Source: an uncultured Candidatus Saccharibacteria bacterium
Lineage (GTDB): Bacteria; Patescibacteriota; Minisyncoccia; Phycocordibacterales; SW-6-46-9
NCBI GenBank assembly: GCA_964534365.1
Contig: CAZHOI010000004.1
Span: forward strand, 1-57,179
DNA: 57,179 bases
Reading direction: 5' to 3'
The notes beneath the pieces are model-generated. The model ran no database searches, had not been told where the DNA came from, and saw only the letters and a list, made by a program, of their open reading frames with translations. A program made the position numbers and the translations under genes. Positions 7,061-42,180 of this stretch are shown here, one piece after another; position 1 is the first letter of the stretch; every line of letters begins with the position of its first letter.

Positions 7061-7183
7061 CTCGCACAAAACTTGGAAGTTTGTAAGTTCGGGTCGCCAT
7101 AAGCGAACCTTGCACAGATTTACGCTGCAGATTGCGGGTCGCCATAAGCGAACCTCGCACAAAACTGCTAGCAGTTTTGTGCG
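7061..7183. repeat. tRNA-3'-end-like tandem repeats with hairpin spacers
   Basis: gggtcgccataagcgaacct exact at 7091-7110 and 7136-7155; ctcgcacaaaact at 7061 and 7154; perfect 28-bp palindrome 7156-7183. Confidence 0.8.
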
Positions 7184-7250
7184 GGTGGAGAGAATCGAAC
7201 TCTCGACCACAGCTTGGAAGGCTGTTGTTATACCACTTAACTACACCCGC
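7180..7250 (-). tRNA. tRNA-Gly (TCC)
   Basis: GCGGGTG..CACCCGCA acceptor stem, anticodon arm acagc-CTTCCAA-gctgt, TTCGATT T-loop; no encoded CCA. Confidence 0.95.
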
Positions 7251-7274
7251 CCACTTATGCATAAGTGGGCGGGT
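7245..7274. repeat. Perfect 30-bp palindrome overlapping the tRNA-Gly(TCC) 5' end
   Basis: acccgcccacttatg|cataagtgggcgggt. Confidence 0.9.
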
Positions 7275-34940: not shown

Positions 34941-37481
34941 GTGATTAAATGGTCGCGATTTTTATCAGTGGTTTACCATACAGTAGCGCGTTTTTTTAAA
35001 ACAATATTTTCCCGACTGCAATTATTTCTGACCAAAATAATTCAGTATAAATTTTCGATCATTACTATTGCTGTGGTCGCATTTATTGCGCTGCTGCCAG
35101 AAACTGCCTCGGCCAACATTAACTTTGGCTGTGGTGGGGTTGGAATAGGTGACGCTTTCCCGGATTTTCCGTGTTTATTAGGGCAAACCATGCTGCAATT
35201 AACCTCGGTATTTGCCTTTATTGCCGGTAATCTACTGGATTTGGTGACTAAATTATTTGTATTTGAAATGTCTACCACCCTGGAACAAGGGCAGCTGTTC
35301 GTTACGCCAGAAACTGGCGAATGGGCCGGGGTACCGGTATATCGCGCGATGTGGTTTATCGTGCGCGACCTTGCCAATTTGTCATTTATTTTTATTCTAA
35401 TTTATGCATCAGTGTCGATGATCTTTAACAATAAATTTGGACTAGATGCCAAAAAGATTGTCCCGCAGTTGGTACTAGTGGCAATACTCATGAATTTTTC
35501 ACTGTTTTTTGTACAGGTAGCCACAGATTTTTCCAACTATATTGCGTACCAGTTCTTTACCAATGTCGAAGTCCAGGTCTGGCAAAATGACGAGAATGAA
35601 GAGATTTTGATTGATCCTGAAACTGGCGAGCCGGCTTTTGTCCAAATCGGATCTACCGAATCAGGAGCCGCGACCCTGTCTGACATCATAATGAACGTTA
35701 CCAAGGTCACCGCGCTGGTGGCCAGCCCTGCCGATCTGGCCAGTTCGCAGGCAGCCAGTCGTAGTGCCGAGCTGGATCGTCAGCCCGGATTTGCGTTTGG
35801 ATTTTTTGCCAGTATATTCGTATTTTTTGCCGGTTTGGTTATGCTGGCTGGCGCATTTTTACTATTTCTGCGGTTTTTCATGATTTTGATATTTATGGTG
35901 TCGGCCCCAATTGCCTTTGCCTCTAGCATTGTCGAAGGAGGTAAAAACAAAGATAGTGGCAAAGGGTTGTTTAAAGGCTGGTGGTTGCCTGGACTAACCA
36001 ATCAATTGATTTTTGCACCGGCATATTTTGGACTGCTATATCTGGCCCTACAGTTTTTGCAAACGATTACTGATGCGGGGTTGGGCGCGCCCAAAGACTC
36101 GACCTTTGCCTATTGGGTTCAAAACGCCTTTATATTTATTGTGTCAGCTGCATTTCTGATTGCCGCTATATGGTATGCCAAAAGACTCTCGATTGCTGGT
36201 TCTAAACTAGCAGTAAATAACACTAAACGCATGTTTGCAGCAGGAGTTTTGGGTGGAGCTGGATTAGCAGGGCGTCAAACTATAGGGCGCTTATCAAATC
36301 GCTACCTAAACTCTAACCAAGATCGACTAAAACAAAGAATTGCAAGCGGTGGGGTTAGCGGTAAAATTGCCCGAATGCAATTAGATGCAGGTAAAAGGAT
36401 GACCAAAGCCAGTTTCGACGGACGACTAGCCCTTGATCGTATCCCAGGAATTAGAATGAATGAAATCTCTTATGGCAATCGTGATAGCCTCAAGAAAGGA
36501 TTCGGGGGAAGAAGAGCCGAAAAACTTGAGAAAGAAACCGAGAAGGTCGTAGACGTTGCACAAGCTCTAAATGAAAAGCAACGCGACCGTTACGCGAATA
36601 GGTTGATGTCACAAAAAACAGGGCTAAAGGGACTGTTCCAATTTATAACTCACAGTCAAGATGTTGAAACAGGAAAACTTGAACCTCGGCCCGGAGCAAA
36701 AAAACTACTGAACAAATATAATAATATTGTTATGGGCTTGGGCGGTTCACTAGAGGACAAATTACTTGAAGGAAGTCCTGGTTTAAGTAAGCGAAAAACA
36801 GCTGCTGCAGTAAATAGAACCAAGAATTTCTTAGCGCGTAATGAGCCAGTGTACGGTCAAGGGGCTGAGCCCGATTGGATTACAAAAGCGCAAGAAAGAG
36901 AAATAACCAAAAGGAAACATCAGGCTGAGGTTTTAATCGCAGAAAACGAACGAGAGGCCGCCACCTTAGAGCGCGAGATGGCTGAGCGTCAGGCAGAAGC
37001 TAAGAAACATGCTAACAGGCTTAAAGATTTACGTAAGAGGCTTGAAAGAGCGAGAGAGCTAGGAAATGAAACTGAGGTCAACCGATATGAAGGTGAATTG
37101 AATGATGAGCAGCAAAGATTGGCTGGAATAAACAATCAAATAAATACCAGGAACTCTCGGCTGAATACACTCAAAAAAGACACCGCCAGAATTCAAAAGG
37201 TGAAAAGTAGAAGAATAAACTCGGCAAGGGATGCATACAATCGAGATAGGACACAGATGCGTTACTCTAATGGAGGTTATATTAATTACAAATTAGGAAA
37301 CGCAATCTCTGGATCAAATTGGGAAAGAACTAAAACAAGTCTCAAGAAAAGAAAGGACGCAGATGAATATTTCAACCGTATGAAAGATGTCGTTAGTGAA
37401 GGGAACTTGAATGCTCCGGAAAAACGAACCGCTGCTGACGCTGGAGACTCAGAGGATTCTTCGGATGGAAACGAAAACTAA
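34941..37481 (+). CDS. VirB6/TrbL-like polytopic membrane protein with long basic coiled-coil C-tail
   Basis: W..VRDLAN..FIF, LV.VAIL.NFSLFF, multiple TM segments; context next to PrgI and VirB4. Confidence 0.7.
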   Translation: MIKWSRFLSVVYHTVARFFKTIFSRLQLFLTKIIQYKFSIITIAVVAFIALLPETASANINFGCGGVGIGDAFPDFPCLLGQTMLQLTSVFAFIAGNLLDLVTKLFVFEMSTTLEQGQLFVTPETGEWAGVPVYRAMWFIVRDLANLSFIFILIYASVSMIFNNKFGLDAKKIVPQLVLVAILMNFSLFFVQVATDFSNYIAYQFFTNVEVQVWQNDENEEILIDPETGEPAFVQIGSTESGAATLSDIIMNVTKVTALVASPADLASSQAASRSAELDRQPGFAFGFFASIFVFFAGLVMLAGAFLLFLRFFMILIFMVSAPIAFASSIVEGGKNKDSGKGLFKGWWLPGLTNQLIFAPAYFGLLYLALQFLQTITDAGLGAPKDSTFAYWVQNAFIFIVSAAFLIAAIWYAKRLSIAGSKLAVNNTKRMFAAGVLGGAGLAGRQTIGRLSNRYLNSNQDRLKQRIASGGVSGKIARMQLDAGKRMTKASFDGRLALDRIPGIRMNEISYGNRDSLKKGFGGRRAEKLEKETEKVVDVAQALNEKQRDRYANRLMSQKTGLKGLFQFITHSQDVETGKLEPRPGAKKLLNKYNNIVMGLGGSLEDKLLEGSPGLSKRKTAAAVNRTKNFLARNEPVYGQGAEPDWITKAQEREITKRKHQAEVLIAENEREAATLEREMAERQAEAKKHANRLKDLRKRLERARELGNETEVNRYEGELNDEQQRLAGINNQINTRNSRLNTLKKDTARIQKVKSRRINSARDAYNRDRTQMRYSNGGYINYKLGNAISGSNWERTKTSLKKRKDADEYFNRMKDVVSEGNLNAPEKRTAADAGDSEDSSDGNEN

Positions 37482-37486
37482 TAAAT

Positions 37487-38332
37487 ATGAATAAATTACC
37501 CCCAGAATTAAAACAACATCTGCAAAATATTCCTGATTTTATGAAGGATATCAGCCAGGTCAAGGAATTTGTAAGCACAGCTGATATTAAATTAACTGAT
37601 GACCAAAAAAGCGCTTTGCGTCTACAACTATTACTAGTCATGACTGGCCTCAAAGACTATCGTTTATTGCCAATAATCATCGAGGAATTTTGTGAACTGG
37701 ATTTTGAAGTATCAGCCTATATAGCTGACAGATTTATGGAAGAAGTGATCGAGCCAATGGGTTATGGATATTTATCAACGGTGTTAAAAGCAGCTAATAA
37801 TGAGGATGTTACCTTTGATCCTGATGACGTAGAAATCTTGCAGACCATATCTCAAGAGCTAGAAGACCAAGAAGGGGCCCCAGAAGTGCCAAAGCCGCCA
37901 AAGGTGGTGTCGCCAAAGTTGGTATTGAATCAAGATCAGAAACGCACCGCGTATCAGGATCTGCGAAATCAGGATTGGTACGAGAATTTACTGAACGAGC
38001 TGTATAAAAAACACAAAATCGGTGATGAGGCTGCCCGCGCACTGGAGCAGGTATTGCAGAAGGCTGTGATTGATGATGATACTACTGGCCTAAAGCGTTT
38101 GGCCACCAATCCGGCACTGGTACCGGTGTCACGAGACCTGCAGGACATCCATGATTATATAGAGGACAAATTTCAAGAAGTGTTAAGGGACATTCAGCAA
38201 AACACAGCCCCAAATCCAGGTATTGATAAAAATAATGATGGAAAGTCGGCTAAAACCCAGTCTAACATTGACCAAATCCGGCCCAAACCTCATCAGGATG
38301 ACCATGATCCGTACCGTGAAGAGGTCAAGTAG
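37487..38332 (+). CDS. Hypothetical acidic cytoplasmic protein of the T4SS-like locus
   Basis: 281-aa ORF, co-oriented; ends with DPYRE. Confidence 0.6.
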   Translation: MNKLPPELKQHLQNIPDFMKDISQVKEFVSTADIKLTDDQKSALRLQLLLVMTGLKDYRLLPIIIEEFCELDFEVSAYIADRFMEEVIEPMGYGYLSTVLKAANNEDVTFDPDDVEILQTISQELEDQEGAPEVPKPPKVVSPKLVLNQDQKRTAYQDLRNQDWYENLLNELYKKHKIGDEAARALEQVLQKAVIDDDTTGLKRLATNPALVPVSRDLQDIHDYIEDKFQEVLRDIQQNTAPNPGIDKNNDGKSAKTQSNIDQIRPKPHQDDHDPYREEVK

Positions 38333-38347
38333 CATATATCATAAAAC

Positions 38348-38698
38348 ATGGAGCAGAAAACCTTTCACGAAAAGCTATCAAACAAAATCGAGACTTTTAT
38401 TCACCAGTCATACGATATTGCTAATCAATTTCCAAAAGAAGAACTATACGGAGCAGGTTCACAACTTAAACGTGCAGCACTTTCGATCGGCTTAAACACG
38501 ACCGAAGGTTATGCTAGATCAAGCAGTAAGTCGTATCGTCACTTTTTATTAATTGCCTATGGGTCATTAAAAGAAAGTTTGTATGTTATTAACTTTTCTT
38601 CAAAGCGCTCTTGGATTACCACCAAACAATCGCAAGATCTTCTAGATAAAGGTGATGAATTGGGAAAAATGTTATGGAGCATTATCTCGAAACTGTGA
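38348..38698 (+). CDS. Four helix bundle protein (23S rRNA IVP-like family)
   Basis: FPKEELYGAGSQLKRAALSIGLNTTEGYAR, FLLIAYGSLKE. Confidence 0.9.
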   Translation: MEQKTFHEKLSNKIETFIHQSYDIANQFPKEELYGAGSQLKRAALSIGLNTTEGYARSSSKSYRHFLLIAYGSLKESLYVINFSSKRSWITTKQSQDLLDKGDELGKMLWSIISKL

Positions 38699-38725
38699 TC
38701 GTGCTTTATGCTTTGTGTTACATGA

Positions 38726-38758
38726 GCACTTGATAATTATTGTATAATTATCAAGTGC
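38726..38758. repeat. Perfect 15-bp inverted repeat over the prgI -10 box and GTG start
   Basis: gcacttgataattat-tgt-ataattatcaagtgc. Confidence 0.9.
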
Positions 38759-39174
38759 AGCATCAAACTCCGCAATTTATCGATATCGAAGACAAGGTGG
38801 TTGGACCGTTTACGGTCAAGCAATTTATTTATTTGATCGCCGGGGGAGGGGCCGCGTTTTTGCTGTTTCGATTTTTGCCATTTTTCTTGTTTTTAGTGGT
38901 AGCAACTCCTATTGTGTCGTTATTTTTGGCCCTGGCATTTTACAAACACAATGAACGTCCGTTTGTTCATTTGGTTGAGTCAGTTTTTAAATATTTGGTC
39001 AACACCAGGTTATATCTGTGGCGCCACCGCAAGCCAACTGACGTCGCCCGTGAACAGGCCAGTGTGCAAGCACCGCAAAAAACCAAAGTGGTTAATTCAG
39101 GGGCGGGCATGGGATCATCAAAGCTAAAGGATCTTTCTTGGAACCTAGAAGTCAAGAAAGAGGATCTTTCTTGA
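38755..39174 (+). CDS. PrgI family protein (T4SS VirB3-like membrane component)
   Basis: PQFIDIEDKVVGPFTVKQFIYL, two TM helices, LAFYK.NERPF; GTG start 6 nt after tataat. Confidence 0.85.
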   Translation: MQHQTPQFIDIEDKVVGPFTVKQFIYLIAGGGAAFLLFRFLPFFLFLVVATPIVSLFLALAFYKHNERPFVHLVESVFKYLVNTRLYLWRHRKPTDVAREQASVQAPQKTKVVNSGAGMGSSKLKDLSWNLEVKKEDLS

Positions 39175-39179
39175 CTTCT
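39147..39179. repeat. Perfect 15-bp inverted repeat over the prgI stop
   Basis: agaagtcaagaaaga-gga-tctttcttgacttct. Confidence 0.9.
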
Positions 39180-39194
39180 GACTTGAACCAGAAC

Positions 39195-39581
39195 ATGTAC
39201 ACGGACAACACAAGTATAAAACCAGATGGATTTAGATTTCTTAAGTGGCAAATTTATGACGATGCTCAAAATTTATATTTAGAAATAAATACAATCACTA
39301 AAGATCTGCCAAAAGCTATGCGATTTGAAGCCACCTCTCAACTGTTACGATCAAGCCATTCTGTAGTTTTAAACATAGCTGAAGGAGCTGGAAAAGAGTC
39401 CGATAAAGAACTTAGGACGTTTTTGTCAATTTCAATGGGTTCGCTGTATGAAACCGTGGCTTGCCTTGATTCATTGGTGAAACTTAACTTGATTAAAGAA
39501 AGTGAATTCCAAAATTTAAAGGCTCGTTACAATAAATTAGCGTCTCAAATAGGAGGTTTTAGAAAGTCTTTGAAACAGTAG
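39195..39581 (+). CDS. Four helix bundle protein (second copy, divergent)
   Basis: FRFLKWQIY, SQLLRSSHSVVLNIAEGAG, FLSISMGSLYETVACLD; start set to the ATG at 39195. Confidence 0.9.
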   Translation: MYTDNTSIKPDGFRFLKWQIYDDAQNLYLEINTITKDLPKAMRFEATSQLLRSSHSVVLNIAEGAGKESDKELRTFLSISMGSLYETVACLDSLVKLNLIKESEFQNLKARYNKLASQIGGFRKSLKQ

Positions 39582-39608
39582 TTATTCTTGTCCCAGTTCT
39601 TGTCCAGG

Positions 39609-39636
39609 TAACTTTTGCTATAATTAGCAAAAGTTA
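39609..39636. repeat. Perfect 12-bp inverted repeat over the -10 box and start of the 39636 gene
   Basis: taacttttgcta-taat-tagcaaaagtta. Confidence 0.85.
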
Positions 39637-40271
39637 TGGCTGAACCCCTCAAAGCACCAGCGACGCAAAACTTTGTTCCGGTGAAAGAAATCCGTGATGG
39701 GGTAGTGATATTGAAAAATAATTCATTGTGTGCGGTATTATTGGCTTCATCACAAAACTTTGCCCTTAAATCCGGCGACGAGCAGACCGGGGTATTAATG
39801 CAATTTCAAAATTTTCTAAATTCACTGGATTTTCCAGTACAGATTGTAGTGCAATCACGCAAAGCTGATATTCGACCCTATATCCAAATGTTGGAAGAGC
39901 GCCTGAAAACTCAAACCAATGAACTGTTACGGGTGCAAAACTATGAATACATCCGATTTGTGCAGTCGTTCGTTGAACAGGTAGATATTATGAAAAAGTC
40001 ATTTTTCGTAGTAGTACCTTATAATCCCGCTATCGCAGACACTACATCAATCACCTCCTTGGTCAAAGGTAAATCAACTGATGATCAACTAACGCTCGAG
40101 CGCTTTGAAGAGTTCCGCACCCAGCTAAATCAGCGATTGGCTATTGTCGAGTCAGGACTTAATCGTTCAGGTATTCGCACCTTGGCGTTAGGAACCGATG
40201 AACTGATCGAGTTGTTCTATCACACCCTAAACCCTGCTGATGCTACGTCAAATGCCCCAGTAAGCAGCTAG
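39636..40271 (+). CDS. VirB4/TraC-associated protein (resembles the N-terminal part of conjugative ATPases)
   Basis: TQ.FVPVKEIRDGVVILK, S.NFALKS.DEQ, FLNSLDFPVQIVVQSRK.DI.PY; lies directly upstream of VirB4. Confidence 0.7.
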   Translation: MAEPLKAPATQNFVPVKEIRDGVVILKNNSLCAVLLASSQNFALKSGDEQTGVLMQFQNFLNSLDFPVQIVVQSRKADIRPYIQMLEERLKTQTNELLRVQNYEYIRFVQSFVEQVDIMKKSFFVVVPYNPAIADTTSITSLVKGKSTDDQLTLERFEEFRTQLNQRLAIVESGLNRSGIRTLALGTDELIELFYHTLNPADATSNAPVSS

Positions 40272-40378
40272 CTGCTTACTGACAACTAATAAAATCTGAG
40301 TCGCTTAGTGATTTCTTAGATTGTAAGTAGTTAGTTGTAGGTGGTAGGAGGTTAAAATTAGATGCTATAATTTTAACC
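40258..40378. repeat. Gene-less palindromic cassette between the 39636 gene and VirB4
   Basis: 24-bp perfect palindrome 40258-40281; nested stems; 7-mer array 40321-40348; 11-bp inverted repeat 40350-40360/40368-40378. Confidence 0.8.
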
Positions 40379-40380
40379 AC

Positions 40381-42180
40381 ATGGGACTTCTGGACTTTAT
40401 AAAATCTGATGACAAACCCGAGCCAGCAGCGGCTGATTCTGGTATCAGCAGCCTGGCATTGTCGGATGTGATTGCTCCATCTGCGCTCGAGATCAAGCCC
40501 AAATCAGTTAACGTATCTGGTAAATTGGCCCGAACGTTATTTGTAATTTCTTATCCCCGTTTTTTAACTGACGGCTGGTTTGCCCCGATTATCAACCTGG
40601 ATCGAATCTTTGACGTTTCACTGCATATTCATCCGGTAGATACTGGGGATTTATTAAAGAAATTCCAGAAAAAAGTAGCCGAGGTTGAATCACAAATCTC
40701 TATACGGCAAGAAAAGGGCATGGTGCGCGACCCAAAATTGGAAACCGCTTATCGTGATCTGGAAAATTTGCGTGATCAGTTAATGCAGGCCCAGGAAAAA
40801 ATGTTTGATGTCGGTCTCTACCTAACTATTTATGCCGATAATGAAACCGATTTAAATAAATTTGAATCCGAAATCAAATCAATTCTCGAGTCCAAATTGA
40901 TTTATCTGAAACCCGCCCTATTTCAGCAAGAACAAGGCCTGCAAACAGTACTACCGACCGCTACTGACGCCCTGCAGGTTCAGTCCAAACTAAACTCGTC
41001 CCCGTTATCGAGCCTATTTCCATTTTTATCCTTTGATTTGTCATCAGACACCGGGATTCTTTACGGTATCAATCGACATAATTCCGGATTGATCTTATTC
41101 GATCGATTTTCAATGCCCAATTACAATTCGATCACCTTTGCGACCTCTGGAGCGGGTAAATCATTTGCCACGAAGCTCGAGCTACTACGATCAATGATGT
41201 TTGATATTGACGTGATTGTGATTGACCCCGAGCGCGAATACGAATATTTGGCCGAGGCGGTAGGGGGCCGGTATTTCAATATCTCATTATCGTCCGAACA
41301 CCACATCAACCCATTTGATATTCCACCGGTCGGCCCAGATGAATCACCCGAGGACGTCTTGCGGTCACATATCATCTCTTTGGTGGGATTATTTCGCATT
41401 ATGTTAAGCGGACTTACTCCTGAAGAAGATTCGATAATAGACCAGGCGATTACCGAGACCTACGCCCTCAAAGACATCAATCCGGGAATTGATTTTAGTC
41501 AAGCCGAGCCACCACTGTTGTCAGATTTCGAACTGGTATTAGCCGGTATCGAAGGGGCCGAAAATATTCTAGCGCGACTGGCCAAATACACTCGTGGTAC
41601 CTGGTCTGGATTTCTGAATCGTCCGTCAAATGTCGATATTAATAAGAAGTTTATTGTTTTTTCGGTGCGTGACATGGAGGACGAGCTAAAACCAGTCGCC
41701 ATGCATTTGATTACTAACTTTATCTGGAACCGAGTGAGGCGTGAACTGCGCAAACGAATTTTGGTAATTGACGAGGCCTGGTGGATGATGAAAGAAGAAG
41801 ATACGGCATCATTTTTATTTGGTCTAGCCAAACGAGGTCGTAAATACTATCTGGGTGTATCAACCATTACCCAGGACGTCGGCGATTTCCTGCGGTCGCC
41901 ATATGGTTTGCCAATTATCACTAACTCGTCAATCCAGCTTTTGTTAAAACAATCGCCAACTTCAATTGATTTACTGCAAGAGACTTTTAACCTAACTGAT
42001 GAAGAAAAATATCTGCTGTTGGAATCAGGGGTAGGCGAGGGCATATTCTTTGCCGGTTTAAAGCACGTAGCCATTCGCATTATTGCGTCCAATACCGAAT
42101 CCCAAATCATAACCTCGGACCCATCCGAGATACTGGCGATTAAAAAGGCCAAACAGCAATTTGCTGACAGTAATGAATAA
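40381..42180 (+). CDS. VirB4/TraC-family type IV secretion ATPase
   Basis: Walker A ATSGAGKS, IDPEREY, HHINPFD, Walker B LVIDEAW, GRKYYLG...ITQDV.DFL. Confidence 0.9.
   Translation: MGLLDFIKSDDKPEPAAADSGISSLALSDVIAPSALEIKPKSVNVSGKLARTLFVISYPRFLTDGWFAPIINLDRIFDVSLHIHPVDTGDLLKKFQKKVAEVESQISIRQEKGMVRDPKLETAYRDLENLRDQLMQAQEKMFDVGLYLTIYADNETDLNKFESEIKSILESKLIYLKPALFQQEQGLQTVLPTATDALQVQSKLNSSPLSSLFPFLSFDLSSDTGILYGINRHNSGLILFDRFSMPNYNSITFATSGAGKSFATKLELLRSMMFDIDVIVIDPEREYEYLAEAVGGRYFNISLSSEHHINPFDIPPVGPDESPEDVLRSHIISLVGLFRIMLSGLTPEEDSIIDQAITETYALKDINPGIDFSQAEPPLLSDFELVLAGIEGAENILARLAKYTRGTWSGFLNRPSNVDINKKFIVFSVRDMEDELKPVAMHLITNFIWNRVRRELRKRILVIDEAWWMMKEEDTASFLFGLAKRGRKYYLGVSTITQDVGDFLRSPYGLPIITNSSIQLLLKQSPTSIDLLQETFNLTDEEKYLLLESGVGEGIFFAGLKHVAIRIIASNTESQIITSDPSEILAIKKAKQQFADSNE

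Follow-up and report, generated by a model that had tools for sequence, protein, structure and literature searches.

Intervening sequences (IVSs) of ribosomal RNA (rRNA) genes are the described elements closest to the locus treated here. The IVS in the 23S rRNA of Coxiella burnetii comprises an S23p open reading frame (ORF), tandem heptamers (GACAGAT), and a 28-bp terminal stem that is cut by RNase III; its mobility has been proposed but is unproven, and a hypothesis cited in the same work regards IVSs as remnants of transposition (PMC4990558). In rRNA genes of the Candidate Phyla Radiation (CPR), insertions lacking an ORF coexist with ORF-bearing ones (PMC11270868). Pairs of inverted heptamer arrays have also been described between co-oriented ORFs of Xanthomonas, where no link to a gene family was made (Rehm et al. 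2015, PMC4692102). Here, we analyzed a 109-nt spacer (positions 40272–40380, + strand) that separates the gene g211 from that of a VirB4 ATPase in the window, a 57,179-nt stretch of DNA from the 755-kb, 15-contig genome of an ultra-small bacterium. Homologues of the proteins of this genome carry the source labels Paceibacteria or Parcubacteria. A preliminary description of the stretch had read the spacer as a gene-less counterpart of two gene-bearing cassettes. From the comparison with related operons, we consider the chances about even that an IVS-type cassette with a gene once occupied this site, lost its ORF, and left the spacer as its relic.

Results

The synteny of PrgI, g211, and VirB4 is kept across the order, with VirB4 identities of 69–76%. 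We read the distance from the g211 stop to the VirB4 start in 28 species representatives with a readable junction. It ranged from −14 to 18 nt in 20 of these genomes and was 38 nt in one; three genomes, including that of the window, had 71–117 nt and no gene, and the remaining four had 467–599 nt with a gene. The junction of most relatives thus measures −14 to about 25 nt versus 109 nt in the window. A combined survey of the species representatives and 80 metagenomic loci yielded 81 distinct junctions, 61 of which were shorter than 55 nt. The lineages closest to the window, with 79–83% g211 identity, have junctions of 4 nt (L060/L061), 15 nt (the L144 group, which has no PF05635 genes at all), 8–9 nt (L149/L150), and 1 nt (L152). 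Similarity between the window and L060 extends to the TAG of g211 and restarts at the ATG of VirB4. Three independent assemblies that represent the window's species do not differ in the spacer. As most relatives, the closest ones included, have tight junctions, the spacer does not represent a conserved VirB4 leader. A fixed leader that never contains a gene, the alternative named in the preliminary description, is accordingly not what was found: the closest relatives have 1–15 nt at this position, and genes do occur there. Judged from these sequence comparisons, the spacer is a lineage-specific insertion in a formerly tight junction.

The preliminary description had proposed a search for small genes at this exact junction in related genomes, and this search was positive. 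A gene of the family PF05635 ('23S rRNA intervening sequence protein', IVP), which encodes a four-helix bundle, is located between g211 and VirB4 in the genomes G035 (L041:3484-3849), G008 (L054:3485-3844), and G033 (L153). A GIY-YIG gene of 97 aa (L026:960-1253) occupies the junction in G032 (L026:806-1389) and is preceded by GTCATTCCCGCGAAAGCGGGAATCCAG-type palindromes. Palindromes of the same type occur without a gene at the g211/VirB4 junction of L068 and L095, and the GIY-YIG gene and its palindromes look like a second cassette type with gene-less forms. On the VirB4 tree, the three IVP-occupied genomes do not form one clade, and their distribution requires at least two to three changes. 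The sister of G033 is G020, in which this junction has heptamer arrays but no gene.

RNA folding of the 141-nt region yielded exactly three hairpins with a minimum free energy of −44.7 kcal/mol, compared to −36.1 kcal/mol for the antisense strand. The fold has a z of −4.2 (200 dinucleotide shuffles, none as stable) and of −5.1 in the survey of gene-less elements described below. The first hairpin is a 24-bp perfect palindrome (12+12; 40258–40281, + strand) centred on the TAG of g211 (40269–40271); its 5′ arm consists of the last four g211 codons and the stop, and its 3′ arm is an inverted copy of this host coding end. The second is an imperfect central hairpin (40282–40338, + strand) with a perfect outer stem ACAACTAA/TTAGTTGT (40282–40289/40331–40338) and an inner stem AATCTGAG/CTTAGATT (40293–40300/40316–40323) of seven Watson-Crick pairs and one G.T pair. 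We read this hairpin as the residual arms of a cassette. Complementary terminal arms that form a stem are hence present in the spacer, though short and imperfect, and the apex has just about 15 nt where gene-bearing cassettes hold their ORF. The third is an 11-bp perfect inverted repeat with a 7-nt loop (40350–40360/40368–40378, + strand) around an extended −10 box, TGCTATAAT (40363–40371, + strand). The 3′ arm of this repeat stops 2 nt short of the VirB4 ATG (40381), and the box itself lies 9 nt upstream of the ATG, corresponding to a leaderless-type start. The nested stems, the stop-codon palindrome, and the 11-bp repeat over the VirB4 −10 box that had been noted previously are therefore all in place, as three significant hairpins. 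The words at the junctions of the spacer are the g211 end + CTGCTTACTGACAAC on the upstream side and TTTTAACCAC + ATGGGACTT on the downstream side.

A GT-rich run of four heptamers (ttgtaag, tagttag, ttgtagg, tggtagg; 40321–40348, + strand) overlaps the 3′ part of the central hairpin and is read as a decayed remnant of a 3′ arm. It resembles the 3′ array of L060 (GTGGTTA ×3 ...GATTAGTTGTGGGT). The letters of the '7-mer array' of the preliminary description are present, and the lag-7 self-identity of 15/21 (0.71) is the highest among lags 2–12; as an array of only four units, however, the run is weak.

Perfect hairpins are concentrated around the spacer. With arms of at least 10 nt, 12 occur in the window, where about 0.6 would be expected, and five of these lie within 38726–40378. 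With arms of at least 11 nt, 46 occur in the whole genome, the same five included, and only two of the listed genome hairpins beyond this segment overlap a gene end. Elsewhere in the window, two perfect palindromes of 28 and 30 bp (7156–7183 and 7245–7274) are located 60 nt apart in an intergenic region. No intrinsic (Rho-independent) terminator, sought as a GC-rich hairpin with a T-run, was found in 38200–40500, and no −35/−10 promoter was found at the locus. An Rfam scan of the region gave no true match; a chance folP RNA hit elsewhere in the region scored 19 bits versus a gathering score of 99. An exact 11-nt direct repeat, ATAAAATCTGA (40289–40299 and 40399–40409), joins the spacer with codons 7–10 of VirB4. 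We considered this repeat as a target-site duplication or a duplicated VirB4 5′ end and rejected it, as the alignment was not significant (p = 0.055); among 19 other loci, no comparable signal was observed except in L054.

The spacer is part of a co-oriented type IV secretion operon, in which two junctions further upstream are occupied by PF05635 genes. The operon comprises a VirB6-like gene (34941–37481), g281 (37487–38332), IVP1 (38348–38698, + strand; E = 2.7e-25), PrgI (38755–39174, GTG start), IVP2 (39195–39581, + strand; E = 1.3e-27; start moved to the ATG at 39195), g211 (39636–40271, + strand), and VirB4 (40381–42180, + strand), which encodes a VirB4/TraC-family ATPase of 599 aa (PF19044, PF12846). 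IVP1 and IVP2 are the genes of cassette 1 at the g281/PrgI junction and of cassette 2 at the PrgI/g211 junction, respectively, and g211 and VirB4 are the upstream and downstream host genes of the spacer. As precomputed Pfam data assign g211 to a TraC-like family (PF26593) and one source annotates it as a VirB4 component, the g211/VirB4 junction parts what look like two halves of a split VirB4, g211 apparently being the split-off N-terminal part.

The preliminary description had assigned the spacer the same architecture as the two gene-bearing cassettes, and this holds. The IVP2 cassette has a 15-bp hairpin over the PrgI stop (39147–39179) and a 12-bp repeat over the −10 box of g211 (39609–39636). 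The IVP1 cassette has a 15-bp repeat over the −10 box of PrgI (38726–38758), while its upstream stop is without a hairpin. The −10 boxes that derive from the IVP cassettes are TGTATAAT-N6-GTG for PrgI and TGCTATAAT-N11-ATG for g211. Inverted repeats of 11–15 bp centred on −10 boxes hence occur three times in the window, and they are also present before PrgI in L149 and L150; their sequences are unrelated each time. The 3′ end of PrgI contains a 20-nt direct repeat with 85% identity (39121–39140 versus 39154–39173; KLKDLSW/KKEDLS*), and the last PrgI codons may derive from a duplication at the arrival of cassette 2.

Across about 100 related operon loci, we identified 21 PF05635 ORFs. All are co-oriented with the operon and confined to three junctions, X/PrgI (X standing for whichever gene precedes PrgI, which is g281 in the window), PrgI/g211, and g211/VirB4. 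These three secretion-operon junctions harbor about 11 of the 52 PF05635 matches in 41 related genomes, an approximately 50-fold enrichment over a random junction, and represent a strong PF05635 hot spot. The layout of the window with two IVP genes is repeated in G040. The flanks of the IVP genes are complementary in a cassette-specific manner: the duplex between a gene's own 5′ and 3′ flanks averages −29.9 kcal/mol compared to −16.8 kcal/mol for mismatched flanks (permutation p = 1e-4). In many cassettes, the flanks are tandem heptamer arrays in opposite orientations, with units such as GTAGTGA in L054, TAGGCTT in L114, AATTACG in L117 and L135, GTGGTTA in L060, and GTTTACA in L154. The two other IVP genes of the window's genome, at C1:177370-177723 between rpe and tkt and from C7:3424 onward, show the same heptamer-arm design.

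Two nearly identical loci illustrate the exchange of such cassettes. L060 and L061 are 99.88% identical over 1610 nt, starting exactly at the ATG of PrgI (L060:896/L061:325). Upstream of this ATG they share no similarity: in L060 the gene is IVP2-like and flanked by GTGGTTA arrays, and in L061 it is IVP1-like, with TTTCATG repeats. An independent, unrelated run (L156:2140-4725) contains the identical L060 form. As both the gene and the arms differ above the PrgI ATG, the arms and the promoter-proximal segment travel with the gene, and the cassettes are exchanged as units whose boundary is the downstream ATG. Genes of one IVP subtype also occupy different junctions in different genomes: the IVP2-type gene resides at PrgI/g211 in the window and at X/PrgI in L060 and L149, and the L054b-type IVP at g211/VirB4 in G008 and at PrgI/g211 in G040. 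We also considered L149 and L150 as a near-identical pair of filled and empty sites; the two share the same g211 protein, but as their DNA is only about 82% identical, they do not represent a clean polymorphism.

Inverted copies of host coding ends are not confined to the spacer. At the g211 stop, they are found in the window as well as in L041, L054, L153, and L137. The PrgI stop of the window is a further case, and L135 and L050 have such copies at g281-like stops. Speculatively, such perfect inverted copying of host ends suggests fold-back synthesis at insertion.

Several further observations concern the IVP cassettes and palindromes of this group of genomes. The loci L117 and L120 (98% identical) differ in the number of CGTAATT heptamer copies in the 3′ arm of the IVP cassette (two versus three), matching the strain variation reported for the heptamers of the Coxiella IVS. 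In the cassette between rpe and tkt (C1:177351-177760, minus strand), the rpe stop lies inside the 5′ array of GCGCTTAGG units, so that the array codes for the last Rpe residues; a C-terminal extension of the g281 homologue in L060 is likewise encoded by the 5′ arm. At C7:3424-5760, the PF05635 ORF continues in frame through two ATACCCACTTCCCA copies into a prepilin-like protein (…RGFTLIEIVVA…), resulting in an open frame of 778 aa that is either a fusion or a pilin-like gene with an unusual start. Palindromes that share the core TGGAAGTC/GACTTCCA (e.g. ATTTGGAAGTCnGACTTCCAAAT) form a dispersed family with members at C1:156167, C2:6119, C2:12784, C3:32296, C5:5706, and C5:6325, and one of these palindromes spans a stop/start junction (C5:6325-6347). 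In the literature library that was open to searching, we did not find PF05635 cassettes described in protein-coding operons of CPR bacteria.

Gene-less elements are frequent at the g211/VirB4 junction. Including the window, 18 distinct loci have 55–200 nt and no gene, and G020 is a further case. Most of these elements are long inverted repeats, and plain inverted heptamer arrays are found in L081 (z = −9.9), L123, L137, L119, L065, L136, and L082. Twelve of the 18 fold at z ≤ −3. Two features distinguish the spacer of the window within this group. A perfect hairpin of at least 8 bp over the g211 stop is present at all three IVP-occupied junctions (L041, L054, and, by inspection, L153) and in the window, versus one of the 17 other gene-less spacers. 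Overall, g211-stop hairpins occur at 4 of 20 large-gap junctions and at none of the 61 tight ones; their rate at random coding positions is 0.7%. Similarly, three of the four gene-bearing inserts (those of L041, L153, and G032) share with the window a −10 box 6–9 nt before the VirB4 ATG, which is present in only 2 of 21 other gene-less spacers. By these two end features, the spacer thus groups with the gene-bearing inserts and not with the arms-only hairpins. Together with the PF05635 and GIY-YIG genes that relatives hold at the junction, these shared end modules support the view of the spacer as a gene-less version of a cassette.

The promoter region of VirB4 follows a genome-wide pattern. 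A tetramer resembling a Shine-Dalgarno (SD) sequence 3–12 nt upstream of the start was observed for only 10 of 526 long ORFs, with no peak in spacing, and the genome is essentially free of SD use. TAnAAT, by comparison, occurs 5–12 nt before the first ATG of 98 of the 526 ORFs, with a sharp peak at 6–9 nt, and exact TATAAT peaks 6–11 nt before ATG throughout the genome (62 cases versus 0–5 at other spacings). As about one fifth of the long ORFs have TAnAAT at this distance, leaderless mRNAs from extended −10 promoters appear to be a main mode of expression. The TGCTATAAT-N9-ATG of VirB4 fits this spacing rule; examples of the pattern in the window are located at 39616–39636, 40363–40381, and 47694. 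Given that no SD sequences are used, downstream cistrons must rely either on tight stop-start coupling or on a leaderless promoter of their own. An AGGAGG at 40345–40350 was considered as an SD sequence, either for a mini-ORF (ATG-CTA-TAA) at 40362 or, bridged by the hairpin, for the VirB4 ATG, and was rejected because of the absence of SD usage in this genome. A gene for RNase III is present at C1:54756-55142.

Discussion

If the spacer is a cassette that lost its gene, which is a better wording than the 'MITE-like' derivative or 'excision scar' of the preliminary description, the following course of events can be envisaged. A PF05635 cassette with complementary, heptamer-built arms would have inserted into the tight g211/VirB4 junction, the 3′ arm of the stop-codon palindrome representing an inverted copy of the last g211 codons. 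The ORF would later have been lost, and the end modules, that is the stop palindrome, the arms, and the −10 promoter, would have stayed, so that the two arms now pair directly to form a short hairpin. In a genome without SD use, the insert would break the stop-start coupling of g211 and VirB4, and the cassette-borne extended −10 box next to the ATG would restore expression of VirB4 as a leaderless mRNA. On read-through transcripts, the hairpins would probably act as 3′-end or processing structures: the stop-codon palindrome may protect or define the 3′ end of the g211 RNA, and the central stem may be a substrate of RNase III. The former presence of a gene at the spacer, the promoter activity, and any RNA processing are what we infer rather than observe.

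The arms of the spacer provide a possible link to a particular cassette. Among 39 comparable elements, the one that aligned best was the L060 IVP cassette, represented by its flanks without the ORF; the alignment spans TACTGACAACTAATAA ~ TATTGACGACTAACAA and GTAGTTAGTTGTAGGT ~ GTGATTAGTTGTGGGT (shuffle p ≤ 0.001). The second-best match (score 38) was a gene-less element at PrgI/g211 in L149, while all other scores were ≤34. Both top matches belong to the sister clade. The gene-less element of L088 was considered as a second example of arm homology, with the IVP flanks of L105/L139; its scores were barely above A/T-rich nulls and carry little weight.

A number of observations weigh against the reading of the spacer as a former gene-bearing cassette. 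Among all element pairs, the score of 48 for the L060 alignment reaches only the 95th percentile, and the similarity is short and of low complexity, which leaves the match only suggestive. The spacer arms are unlike those of both resident IVP cassettes (alignment scores of 22–26). Between the arms, no ORF or recognizable IVP coding remnant and no similarity at the protein level were detected. Tandem Repeats Finder did not call an array in the heptamer run at 40321–40348, even at a score of 30, in line with its weak periodicity. We did not find a strain that combines a gene at the g211/VirB4 junction with arms like these. The three assemblies of this species are identical. Finally, the sense strand folds better in just 7 of the 18 gene-less elements (p = 0.59), and this lack of a strand preference does not support a function at the RNA level in general. 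Selection for a sense-strand RNA, assessed by G.U asymmetry, is visible in the window but not across these elements.

It is conceivable, though rather unlikely, that the spacer arrived without a gene, either as a self-spreading ORF-less hairpin or as a landing hairpin whose loop takes up small genes later. Such a scenario would account for the abundance of gene-less 55–200-nt inverted-repeat hairpins, which are about sixfold commoner at this junction than IVP-occupied inserts and most of which fold at z below −3, and for the gene-less element with similar arms at PrgI/g211 in L149. It also has precedents in the gene-less paired inverted heptamer arrays between co-oriented ORFs of Xanthomonas (PMC4692102) and in the ORF-less IVSs known from rRNA (PMC11270868). 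However, in L060 and L061 the arms differ together with the gene at one and the same site, which indicates that arms travel with the ORF and do not pre-exist. In addition, the spacer bears the stop-codon hairpin and the ATG-abutting −10 box, marks of gene-bearing inserts that are rare in arms-only spacers, and it occurs as a single copy in the genome.

We regard it as less probable still that the spacer is an ordinary regulatory region that evolved locally and is unrelated to cassettes, consisting of an internal promoter of VirB4 and stem-loops with a stabilizing or insulating role. The TGCTATAAT-N9-ATG arrangement matches the promoter rule of the genome itself, the 38-nt spacer of L052 contains a −10 box and lacks cassette features, and both the lack of a coding remnant and the weak heptamer signal are compatible with such an origin. 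Against it, 5 of the 46 genome hairpins with arms of at least 11 nt cluster in the 1.65 kb that hold both IVP genes and the spacer, and close relatives manage without a spacer at this junction. Moreover, the same junction repeatedly hosts selfish small genes, and the similarity of the arms points to an IVP cassette of the sister clade.

A miniature inverted-repeat transposable element (MITE), non-autonomous and mobilized by a transposase in trans, or the excision footprint left by a DNA transposon is very improbable despite the inverted repeats and the filled or empty state of the site among relatives, as a search for further copies of the 120 nt in the 755-kb genome returned only self-matches and chance short matches, no target-site duplication is present at the TAG/ATG boundaries, no transposase is evident in or beside the cassettes, and the arm sequences differ between nearly all cassettes and thus provide no common recognition sequence.

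Read as a cassette relic, the spacer shares most with the IVSs of 23S rRNA, as known from helix 45 of Coxiella burnetii and from Leptospira, and with the short IVSs of the Salmonella type. The S23p/PF05635 family is found in neighboring junctions and in relatives, the ORF is enclosed by complementary, stem-forming termini, tandem heptamers are found in many of the cassettes, forms with and without ORF occur, the distribution among relatives is sporadic, and the host has RNase III. In contrast to IVSs, whose site is an rRNA helix, the spacer lies between protein cistrons of a type IV secretion operon. It also brings a promoter for the gene that follows and a hairpin on the upstream stop, and its stems are short (8–12 bp) and decayed. 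The GGGAATC arrays of Xanthomonas and the heptamer repeats of Nostoc (PMC4692102) are similarly gene-less, convergent arrays in co-oriented gaps that may form stem-loops or cruciforms. However, those arrays form a multi-copy family that uses a single G-rich unit in each genome and was interpreted as forming quadruplexes, whereas the elements described here each have their own unit, are single-copy, and alternate with PF05635 genes at the same site. As with the outward promoters of insertion sequences (ISs) and with leaderless promoters, the insert supplies a −10 box for the downstream gene, positioned 6–11 nt before the ATG as at about 60–100 other genes; unlike IS promoters, it has neither a transposase nor a −35 box, and its promoter lies within an 11-bp perfect inverted repeat. 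With MITEs and with repetitive extragenic palindromes and bacterial interspersed mosaic elements (REP/BIME), the spacer shares its short, gene-less, palindromic nature and its intercistronic position, but it is not repeated in the genome and has no target duplication and no shared consensus.

A more general picture is possible, although taken as a whole we hold it to be doubtful. Small-gene hairpin cassettes may form one class of insertable modules of cistron junctions, and rRNA IVSs would be those copies whose insertion happened to hit rRNA. PF05635 genes with heptamer arms would belong to this class, and GIY-YIG genes with GGGAATGAC-type palindromes would be a parallel case. The members of the class would bring their own leaderless-type promoters, copy the host end in inverted orientation at insertion, and commonly end as gene-less relics, and they would preferentially target the split-VirB4 junction of Paceibacteria. 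Under these assumptions, the perfect stop-codon palindromes would be traces of the inverted copying of the host end, left by an insertion that proceeds by fold-back or is primed by a hairpin.

The origin and mobility of 23S rRNA IVSs and of PF05635 proteins are a question that dates from the 1990s, and the spacer ties gene-less hairpin spacers to these intervening sequences of rRNA. At a single junction, a comparative series can be followed that comprises tight sites, sites with an IVP or a GIY-YIG gene, arms without a gene, and the presumed relic, in which the end modules persist. Together with the swap between L060 and L061 at a start codon, this series makes the mobility, the boundaries, and the decay of such elements testable. 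The locus would further show how an insert can be tolerated in a genome without SD sites, namely by bringing its own leaderless-mRNA promoter for the downstream gene. This bears on how operon structure and gene regulation are read in Patescibacteria, a group with almost no experimental knowledge so far.

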